Positions 21,106-22,322 are shown, numbered from the stretch's first letter. The stretch is 64,000 nt of DNA from an uncultured Candidatus Saccharibacteria bacterium (GCA_964627085.1 CAZVIP010000002.1:4416-68415), one strand, 5' to 3'. Numbers and translations: made by a program. The notes: a model not told the origin generated them from the sequence alone.

Positions 21106-21834
21106 CTATTCGTTTGTTAATTCAAATCTGATAATGTCTCCGCTTTTTGGAATATAGTTAGAAATTCCAACATTTCCCCTTTGACTGTTCACACGATAAA
21201 ACCAATATAGATTATTTTTTGGCGATTCTTTTATGCCATTTATTGAGTCTATATAGTAACCAAGTCCATCAAATTCTTTTTGGGTAAAAGAGAGCACACC
21301 TTCATCGCTTAGTTTTTTTGTGAGATCATATACAGTTCCACCTATCTTGAGTTTTGTATCTATGCGCAAGGCGATTGTTTTTGTATTCGGACCAGCTGTC
21401 GAGACTCCTATTTTTTGCGCATTTTCAGCACTGACGAAAACCTCAAAAGAAACCGGCATTTGCTCAGCCACCTGGCCCCCTTGAACCCCAGCTGTATTTG
21501 CATTCATCTGTGCGATAGAGGTTGCGGTATAGGTCGCACTTCCCGGCGCATTCAAGTACATATCCATTTCCGCAGACCTATCTTTTGATACTTGTTTTGA
21601 GCGTAGGCTACTTAGAGATTTTGATTCACTCTGACCAGTCTGACCACTTTCACTAATCTGACTTAGGATTTCCTTGTCGAAAGAATTATTGTCTCTCACC
21701 TCCCTAACATTTCGTGAATATTCAGAATATAAAGATGCGAATACAGTCAGTGCAACACAAAAAGCAATAAGGAAAATATACTTAGCACTTTTTTTGATCG
21801 ACAGCCCTATAGATGATTGTATTTTTTGATTCAT
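21106..21834 (-). CDS. secreted DUF4430 domain protein (transcobalamin beta-domain-like)
   Basis: Signal peptide/TM; C-terminal SINGIKESPKNNLYWFYRVNSQRGNVGISNYIPKSGDIIRFELT matches the DUF4430 pattern SGW.Y.VNG...L.dGD.I.f.Y; stop overlaps the next gene start; true start is the ATG 6 nt inside the listed TTG. Confidence 0.65.
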   Translation of the reverse strand: MNQKIQSSIGLSIKKSAKYIFLIAFCVALTVFASLYSEYSRNVREVRDNNSFDKEILSQISESGQTGQSESKSLSSLRSKQVSKDRSAEMDMYLNAPGSATYTATSIAQMNANTAGVQGGQVAEQMPVSFEVFVSAENAQKIGVSTAGPNTKTIALRIDTKLKIGGTVYDLTKKLSDEGVLSFTQKEFDGLGYYIDSINGIKESPKNNLYWFYRVNSQRGNVGISNYIPKSGDIIRFELTNE

Positions 21835-21840
21835 AAACAA

Positions 21841-21989: not shown

Positions 21990-22160
21990 GTATGTATATA
22001 AAGACGTTCTGCTCGAAACTTACAAGTCATTTAAAGATCGGACTTATCATCTGCAATAATTGCGATGCATTACCGTTGCGGCACAGCGAAGGATTTTCAC
22101 CTTACTTCCACATTCAGCATTCTTTGTTCTGCTGACGCTCATTTCCCGCCCAAGAATCTG
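21990..22160 (-). promoter_or_regulatory. cobalamin (B12) riboswitch-like leader
   Basis: Minus strand GGAAGUAAGGUGAAAAUCCUUCGCUGUGCCGCAACGGUAAUG matches the conserved core GGGAAnnnGGUGnAAnUCCnnnGCnGnCCCGCaACgGUAA; a partial B12-box-like AAGUCCGAUC lies downstream; sits in the 5' leader of the DUF4430 operon. Confidence 0.5.
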
Positions 22161-22322
22161 TTCAAGATCTTGCAGTACAAGGGAAATAAGTAAATGACCT
22201 TCGCATATTCTATGCAAAGGTCATTTACTTGTAAACATATACAATTGGTTTTTTTGTGTTGCGATGAGGTCTTCTTGTGTGTATTTCAGCAAAACCAACT
22301 TCTCCATCCTCAATCCGCCAGA

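Follow-up and report, generated by a model that had tools for sequence, protein, structure and literature searches.

The 64,000-nucleotide stretch of DNA analysed here (GCA_964627085.1 CAZVIP010000002.1:4416-68415; hereafter the window) comes from an uncultured Candidatus Saccharibacteria bacterium, and between greA (22787-22323) and a gene coding for a DUF4430 protein (ATG at 21834) it contains a leader that very probably acts as a functional class-II cobalamin riboswitch of the Cbl-IIb/RF01482 type. The predicted element spans 22200-21839 and would control a three-gene corrinoid-binding/uptake operon by an OFF mechanism; it is on the minus strand, as are all window features described below unless stated otherwise. 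The riboswitch is a structural variant, itself new, within a known class: the 5' strand of its closing helix is separated from the core by an insertion of 79 nucleotides (nt; 22190-22112) that folds into two hairpin arms. An earlier note, made from the sequence alone, had placed a cobalamin riboswitch variant with an insertion 5' of the core at 21990-22160. That proposal stands, and the span includes the core but misses the closing-helix strand at 22200-22191, half of the first arm, and the terminator at 21862-21839.

Among the models of Rfam clan CL00101, the best match at this site is to RF01482, an adenosylcobalamin (AdoCbl) riboswitch family, with 44.2 bits for a local alignment of model positions 25-96 of 149 to 22112-22032 (E = 8.5e-7 for a 701-nt region, and E = 7.7e-5 for the whole window on both strands with all 4227 families). 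The aligned span comprises J3/4, P4, P5, P6 and J6/3, and the four-way-junction core of the family is recognisable throughout it, with the UGGAA of J3/4, P4/L4 (GGUGAAAAUCC), P5, the base of P6, and a J6/3 of the xUCUUU type, and with posteriors mostly marked '*'. The window also has the short P6 of the family, a 37-nt hairpin at 22075-22039 without P7-P11, and a 3' P13 hairpin able to kiss L5 through five pairs. Two other defining features are lacking, and we therefore regard the element as a structural variant and not as a plain RF01482 member: the score falls short of the curated gathering score of 50 bits, and in place of a continuous P1-J1/3-P3 there is a 10-base pair (bp) helix whose 5' strand is 79 nt, or two hairpins, away from J3/4. 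An Rfam scan of the window at gathering thresholds reported tRNA only, and not the riboswitch site.

The organisation of the aptamer can be followed from its 5' end. The closing helix (P1/P3) is formed by AGGUCAUUUA (22200-22191) and UAAAUGACUU (22033-22024) in ten contiguous pairs, the 3' strand being placed directly after GAUCUU by homology with leaders that lack the insertion. Arm 1 (hp1, 22190-22138) follows, with a 10-bp basal stem (CUUAUUUCCC/GGGAAAUGAG) that was also detected as an inverted repeat in a repeat search, an inner stem (CAAGAUCU/AGAUUCUUG) and the loop UGAAC, and then arm 2 (hp2, 22135-22114), with the stem UCAGCA/UGCUGA and an A-rich loop (GAACAAAGAA). The conserved junction strand J3/4, AUG plus UGGAA (22113-22106), aligns to RF01482 positions 26-31 and leads into P4 with its T-loop-type L4 (GUAAGG UGAAAAU CCUUC, 22105-22088), which across the relatives is 100% paired and has two covarying pairs. 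P5/L5 (UGU GCC GCA, 22085-22077) contains the kissing-loop bases UGCCG (22083-22079), and P6 (CGG ... CCG, 22075-22039) is supported by the RF01482 alignment, by pair counts and by the minimum free energy (MFE) structure. J6/3 is AUCUU (22038-22034), the class-specific counterpart of the 3' half of the 'B12 box', for which the RF01482 consensus is GUCUUU. Past the closing helix, a four-nt GUAA precedes P13 (GUUU/GAAC, 22019-22006) with its loop L13, CGAGCA (22015-22010). Unconstrained MFE folding of 22200-22003 yields the closing helix, both arms, P6 and P13.

The motifs quoted in the earlier note are all present on the minus strand, namely GGGAAAU (22147-22141), GGAAG (22109-22105), GGUGAAAAUCC (22101-22091), GCCGCAACGGUAA (22082-22070) and AAGUCCGAUC (22045-22036), although 31 nt, and not the approximately 45 nt it gave, separate GGGAAAU from GGAAG. 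A P3-like pairing beside J3/4 was considered, for example of UGAA (22116-22113) with UUUA (22035-22032), and rejected, as it competes with arm 2, takes up conserved J6/3 bases and has no counterpart in relatives; inspection of the sequences of relatives revealed no conserved pairing among the candidates next to J3/4. We also discarded the idea that the insertion is a repeated or mobile element, since it is single-copy in the window and the arm sequences are unrelated between lineages.

For comparison we assembled 13 related leaders, using a degenerate core pattern over species-representative genomes, a pattern for the Saccharibacteria-type L5 and J6/3 over metagenomes, and homologues of the DUF6580 protein encoded in the operon. 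The species-representative scan returned Firmicutes members of RF01482 (Streptococcus, Listeria, Paenibacillus, Vagococcus and others) and one Candidatus Saccharibacteria metagenome-assembled genome (L062; LH_M92), the metagenome scan returned L090-L097, and the DUF6580 homologues, one of which carries the label Candidatus Liptonbacteria, led to L100, L101/L102, L107 and L108. A search of the indexed collection with the DUF4430 protein found only itself and one non-identical homologue (79% identity), the contig of which (L001) has a leader 96% identical to that of the window. Wherever the downstream gene is readable it encodes a DUF4430 protein, the L093 contig stopping 41 codons into the open reading frame (ORF). 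The element is thus the leader of a DUF4430 operon with relatives in the Patescibacteria, as had been suggested. Folding of P4, P5 and P6 is seen with the covariance model as well as in each relative, and the block is conserved in related leaders; the two checks that the earlier note had proposed, a covariance-model fold and a comparison of orthologous leaders, accordingly both leave its identification of a cobalamin riboswitch in place.

Leaders with and without the insertion share the same core. In the insertion-free leaders L062, L091 and L100, J3/4 and J6/3 are bordered without a gap by a helix of 8-11 bp, the RF01482 arrangement, and because they lack the two arms these leaders pass the Rfam threshold at full length (62.3, 54.9 and 56.6 bits, respectively). 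They have L5 and L13 identical to those of the window, the J6/3 sequence GAUCUU, a DUF4430 first gene and a terminator platform; they differ in having no arms and, for L091 (4571-4690, minus strand) and L100 (3136-3275, plus strand), in carrying an additional hairpin between the 3' strand of the closing helix and P13. Two arms are present at the same site in five independent lineages (the window, L090, the L092 group consisting of L092 and L094-L097, L093, and L108), always in the order helix strand, arm, arm, UGGAA, with linkers of 0-3 nt. The sequences and lengths of the arms are unrelated across these lineages, with total insertions of 31-52 nt in the relatives, and arm fold z-scores range from -2.4 to -5.8. 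The two arms are a lineage-recurrent peripheral element that takes the place of the direct helix-J3/4 junction of insertion-free members. L095, in the L092 group, also exceeds the RF01482 gathering score; the other arm-bearing relatives score 43-48 bits, except for the divergent L108, which has no listed RF01482 match and only a sub-threshold match of 27.4 bits to RF01689 (AdoCbl-II, Cbl-IIa), a model that is the best of the clan for L108 alone and not in the window. A further departure from the common architecture is seen in L107 (3007-3184, plus strand), where a hairpin of about 20 nt is inserted in L4 and the L5/L13 pair differs (AUCCG with CGAGAU).

The pairings are supported by covariation. 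Full-length leader alignments made with MAFFT split the non-conserved strands of the closing helix across columns, and pairs were therefore counted in fixed-length mini-alignments, from which one bulged U of L090 was removed. Counted over 11 leaders, the closing helix has 91.8% pairing and all ten pairs have changes on both sides, which none of 500 shuffles equalled; sliding the partner strand by even one column makes the signal collapse. When the 150 nt upstream were subjected to dinucleotide shuffling, ten contiguous pairs in that register arose in only 9 of 2000 cases, a control that is partial for reasons given below. P4, P5, the P6 base and P13 are together 99.3% paired across relatives, with covariation in P4 and P13, and the P13 stem varies widely (UACC/GGUA, AUCC/GGGU, UUUC/GAAA, CUUC/GAAG), whereas L13 is CGAGCA in each of L062, L090-L097, L100 and L108. 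GGAAG is unchanged across relatives, the J6/3 sequence GAUCUU is unchanged in those relatives that were selected by pattern (L108 has GUCAG and L107 has GUCGCU), and the outer P5 pair is U-A in the window and G-C in the Firmicutes members. L5 UGCCG can form five pairs with L13 CG(A)GCA, leaving A22013 bulged, and the second L5 position covaries with its L13 partner, being G-C in the group of the window, U-A in L107 (AUCCG/CGAGAU) and C-G in Firmicutes (UCCCG/CGAGG). The L5 consensus is UCCCG and the functionally mapped kissing pairs are those of L5 CCG with L13 CGG, bulged variants of which are known; the register in the window agrees with the pairs mapped in the metE riboswitch of Priestia megaterium (PMC10327014).

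These features permit comparison with the described classes. Cbl-I riboswitches have a P2 arm between P1 and P3 and a large P6 extension, and Cbl-IIa riboswitches have a bulged J1/3; the AdoCbl-binding Cbl-IIb riboswitches, for which no structure is available, have a short mismatched or paired J1/3 and a short P6 hairpin (PMC7367189). The Bacillus subtilis yvrC riboswitch is a hybrid that combines a P2 arm with a short P6, and its arm buttresses the binding pocket (PMC7367189). The window has in common with RF01482/Cbl-IIb the UGGAA of J3/4, GGUGAAAAUCC in P4, a 3-bp P5, a short P6, a J6/3 of the form xUCUU(U), a P13 loop starting with CGAG, and the kissing-loop register. It differs in that its closing helix does not abut J3/4, with two arms (79 nt) lying between them, in its L5 (UGCCG, as compared with UCCCG in the family) and L13 (CGAGCA, as compared with CGAGG, CGAUG or CGUGG), and in a J6/3 that is one nucleotide shorter. 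The setting differs too, the window element being cis-regulatory and placed before B12-binding/uptake genes, and the retrieved members of the family, other than L062, being all Firmicutes; RF01482 is the riboswitch of the eut locus (Enterococcus, Listeria, Streptococcus), where its Firmicutes members have a small RNA context. A peripheral arm 5' of the core is shared with the Cbl-I P2 arm and with yvrC, and a short P6 with yvrC, but both of these have one arm between P1 and P3, with P3 behind it, whereas the window has two arms, no helix before J3/4 and an RF01482-like core. By the published descriptions, none of Cbl-I, Cbl-IIa, Cbl-IIb or yvrC has a closing helix with two arms at its inner end and no P3 behind them.

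We infer that the 22200-22003 aptamer binds a corrinoid, and its likeness to Cbl-IIb predicts that the ligand is AdoCbl. It is possible, albeit doubtful, that this functional aptamer responds instead to methyl- or hydroxocobalamin or to another corrinoid, with the arms setting its selectivity, a situation compatible with the switching proposed below. Selectivity in this family depends on peripheral elements around a conserved core and can be shifted by small changes in them, no Cbl-IIb structure exists (PMC7367189), the J6/3 AUCUU departs from the GUCUUU of AdoCbl-responsive Firmicutes members, and several corrinoids are recognised by corrinoid riboswitches (PMC10327014, PMC9600662). Favouring AdoCbl, the best-matching family is the AdoCbl-binding Cbl-IIb (PMC7367189), and an adenosyltransferase gene lies beside the homologous operon of L107.

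The expression platform begins within the aptamer. An intrinsic terminator is predicted at 21862-21839 (CUUCUG ACUCG CAGAAG followed by U7, with a 6-bp stem containing three G-C pairs), and its U-tract ends at 21839, 5 nt before the ATG, in agreement with the earlier description of a terminator abutting the start codon. From the end of P13 (22006) to the start of the terminator there are 143 nt, comprising the GUC at 22005-22003 and a spacer with local hairpins (22002-21863), in which no Rfam family was matched and in which one hairpin, CCG-AAU-CGG (21980-21972), has undergone a single compensatory G-C to A-U change in L001, at 21978/21974. The segment CGAGCAGAA (22015-22007) is complementary to UUCUG(A)CUCG (21861-21852), the 5' half and loop of the terminator, and the pairing continues through GUC/GAC and UUUAU/AUAAA to 21998/21877. 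An antiterminator can thus form between 22015-21998 (L13, the 3' side of P13, GUC and UUUAU) and 21877-21852, with a computed duplex energy of -15.5 kcal/mol. P13 by itself has about 0 kcal/mol, and the computed MFE structure of 22028-21838 is the antiterminator form, at -39.1 kcal/mol as compared with -34.9 kcal/mol for P13 plus terminator. By computation, therefore, the region has both elements of an attenuation platform, a G+C-containing stem with a U-tract upstream of an ORF, and a mutually exclusive antiterminator joined to the sensing domain. In the L092 group the equivalent complementarity between L13 and the terminator is kept (GAGCAGAA pairs with UUCUGCUC), and matches of the CCCGAG/CUCGGG type lie within the terminators of L090 and L108.

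The switch is most likely corrinoid-OFF and mainly transcriptional. Binding of a corrinoid would favour the kissing of L5 (UGCCG) with L13 (CGaGCA), keeping the intrinsically weak P13 closed, such that the terminator could form and transcription would halt 5 nt upstream of the start codon. When the ligand is absent, L13 and the 3' side of P13 (22015-21998) would pair with 21877-21852, which comprises the 5' half of the terminator together with upstream sequence, and the antiterminator so formed would allow the operon to be transcribed. A closely comparable platform is that of P. megaterium metE, for which it was shown experimentally that the kissing loop must stabilise a weak P13 so that the terminator wins (PMC10327014); in both systems the kissing loop stabilises P13 and P13 is weaker than the antiterminator. 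They differ in that the metE aptamer is of class I with a P13-terminator distance within 0-82 nt, and in the window L13 is itself part of the antiterminator. The control mode, which the earlier note had left ambiguous, is less so since L13 is complementary both to L5 and to the 5' half of the terminator (P13/L13, 22019-22006), the standard kissing-loop/antiterminator/terminator design.

Several observations weigh against the interpretation of this leader as a functional, transcriptionally acting riboswitch. The score of 44.2 bits lies below the RF01482 gathering score, and the Rfam model leaves the closing helix and P13 unaligned. MFE values of the whole leader and of 22187-21990 are no better than those of shuffles (z = -0.83 and +0.39). 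The terminator stem is weak (-5.2 kcal/mol), and its distance of 143 nt from P13 exceeds the 0-82 nt found in 38 tested corrinoid riboswitches (PMC10327014). In leaders with the insertion, complementarity was the basis for selecting the 5' strand of the closing helix, a step for which the shuffle test on the upstream 150 nt is a partial control; a further control is provided by the insertion-free leaders, in which the position of the strand is fixed. Statistics for the kissing loop derive from five distinct rows (18/500). Finally, in transcripts begun upstream, a 20-bp hairpin at 22230-22188 would sequester the 5' strand of the closing helix.

The weakness of the terminator stem and the end of the U-tract just 5 nt from the AUG also bear on whether the same aptamer might exert translational or dual control, with the hairpin at 21862-21846 and the U-run acting on ribosome loading as in env8 and btuB-type switches. 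The L092 group lends this a measure of support, as the hairpin homologous to the window terminator (CUUCUG CUCAAA CAGGAG plus U6) has a Shine-Dalgarno sequence 8 nt before the AUG with U6 after it. We nonetheless consider translational or dual control unlikely in the window. No GGAGG-like Shine-Dalgarno sequence was found in the 5-10 nt before the ATG, as had been noted, and there is thus none to sequester; the 3' arm CAGAAG lies 12-17 nt from the AUG, the hairpin leaves the AUG uncovered, a stem followed by U7 fits an intrinsic terminator, and the antiterminator logic fits the experimentally dissected transcriptional metE switch (PMC10327014). As an observation on the L092 group itself (29% G+C), the terminator-like hairpin at 1304-1321 on the minus strand of L092, and at the equivalent sites of L094-L097, takes in the Shine-Dalgarno sequence CAGGAG, with U6 and the AUG coming after it; one structure could there both terminate transcription and mask the ribosome-binding site.

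It is highly improbable that the element is a decayed, non-functional remnant in which core motifs persist and the insertion has broken the closing helix. The sub-threshold, local Rfam match and the 79-nt interruption between helix and J3/4 are what might be expected of a remnant, but identity to L001 is 99.5% in the aptamer, as compared with 89.3% in the spacer and 84.7% in the coding sequence, and the sole aptamer substitution (G22140A) converts a U.G pair of arm 1 to U-A. All helices are preserved, as are the kissing-loop complementarity and the antiterminator, and the interrupted architecture is kept in four other lineages. The anatomy proposed in the earlier note, an RF00174-like AdoCbl arrangement with GGGAAAU as a core element some 45 nt away and a mutated B12 box, is already contradicted: the motifs are present and GGGAA does resemble the conserved junction motif of class I, but GGGAAAU belongs to the 3' strand of arm 1, where it pairs with AUUUCCC (within 22190-22181) and where the sequences of relatives are unrelated, the aligned junction motif is the UGGAA at 22110-22106, and J6/3 fits the RF01482 consensus. 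What was taken for a degenerate B12 box, AAGUCCGAUCUUUA, does not match the RF00174 consensus rAGYCMGgAgaCCkGCc (as that note gave it) and does match the RF01482 consensus AAGUCAGGUCUUUu, from a class that never carries the RF00174-type box; nor does the window have the large P7-P11 extension of Cbl-I, its P6 being a simple hairpin. As to the single P2 arm of Cbl-I, two arms are present in the window, with no P3-like pairing behind them.

The operon downstream of the riboswitch opens with the DUF4430 gene (21834-21106; 242 amino acids), followed by a gene for a protein of 829 amino acids (21104-18615) that combines DUF4430 with an alpha/alpha-toroid domain, and by the gene for a DUF6580 membrane protein (18582-17911), the last conserved gene of the operon. 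In transcobalamin-type B12 binders, DUF4430 forms the C-terminal domain (PMC4350170). The toroid of the 829-amino acid protein is squalene-cyclase-like with a weak match to the eukaryotic Cobalamin_bind family, and the protein has long low-complexity stretches rich in Thr, Ser and Gln and a hydrophobic anchor at its C-terminus; it resembles the transcobalamin-like two-domain arrangement and is probably a surface protein for corrinoid capture. As the conserved last gene of a riboswitch-controlled operon, the DUF6580 gene is a candidate for encoding a corrinoid permease; the protein had no match in a PDB sequence search or in NCBIfam, and homologues are encoded in L062 (5878-6426) and L107 (6001-6540). 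The same order of DUF4430, large DUF4430-toroid and DUF6580 genes is found in L101/L102 and L108, whereas L062 has a shorter DUF4430-DUF6580 pair, L100 a four-gene version with an extra ORF of 75 amino acids, and L107 a variant arrangement that adjoins genes for BtuR/CobA adenosyltransferase and for ribonucleotide reductase plus TSCPD. Downstream of DUF6580 in the window there is an ORF of 221 amino acids (17665-17000) without a Pfam or NCBIfam match. A 50-codon ATG ORF at 22030-21878, overlapping the 3' strand of the closing helix, P13 and the spacer, was rejected, as a 1-nt deletion in L001 at 21954 breaks its frame.

The predicted switch marks the DUF4430, DUF4430-toroid and DUF6580 genes as a corrinoid-responsive unit, and it supports a role of the operon in B12 capture or uptake in organisms that scavenge cofactors from their hosts. 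We tentatively suggest that Patescibacteria-type DUF4430-DUF6580 leaders might contain an undescribed class-II subclass, in which arms at the P3/J3-4 boundary replace the pocket buttressing of a P2 arm or P6 extension and set the corrinoids sensed by these cofactor-scavenging episymbionts. A literature search for cobalamin riboswitches in Patescibacteria found no description, which is not proof of absence and is weak evidence for novelty. Tuning of corrinoid selectivity has been ascribed to peripheral elements (PMC7367189), and the natural series on one conserved core, which comprises armless forms and forms with a 3' hairpin, an L4 insertion or two 5' arms, offers a comparative set for selectivity. 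Most arm-bearing members fall under the Rfam gathering score (the window, L001, L090, L093, four of the five L092-group leaders, and L108), so that standard annotation under-calls B12 regulation in genomes of Patescibacteria. The two-armed variant leaves the general understanding of cobalamin riboswitch function as it was.

Transcription presumably starts close to 22200, where the closing helix begins. A promoter-like site upstream (22235-22207) has a -35 element TTTACA (22235-22230) and a -10 element TAGAAT (22212-22207) separated by a 17-nt spacer, with 10 of 12 positions matching; in a promoter scan, such sites occur in the region at the chance rate. L092 and L093 have the same promoter spacing, with the -10 element ending 6 nt before the helix. 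The position of the start matters, because the 22230-22188 hairpin would compete with the closing helix in transcripts begun upstream.

That hairpin is a near-perfect 20-bp inverted repeat with a 3-nt loop (22188-22230, both strands), situated about 90 nt past the stop codon of greA. The promoter-like site has its spacer and -10 element within this repeat, the 3' arm of which overlaps the closing-helix strand at 22200-22191. No U-tract follows the repeat on either strand, and it could serve greA as an atypical terminator. L001 carries A in place of G at 22202, by which a U.G pair of this stem becomes U-A.

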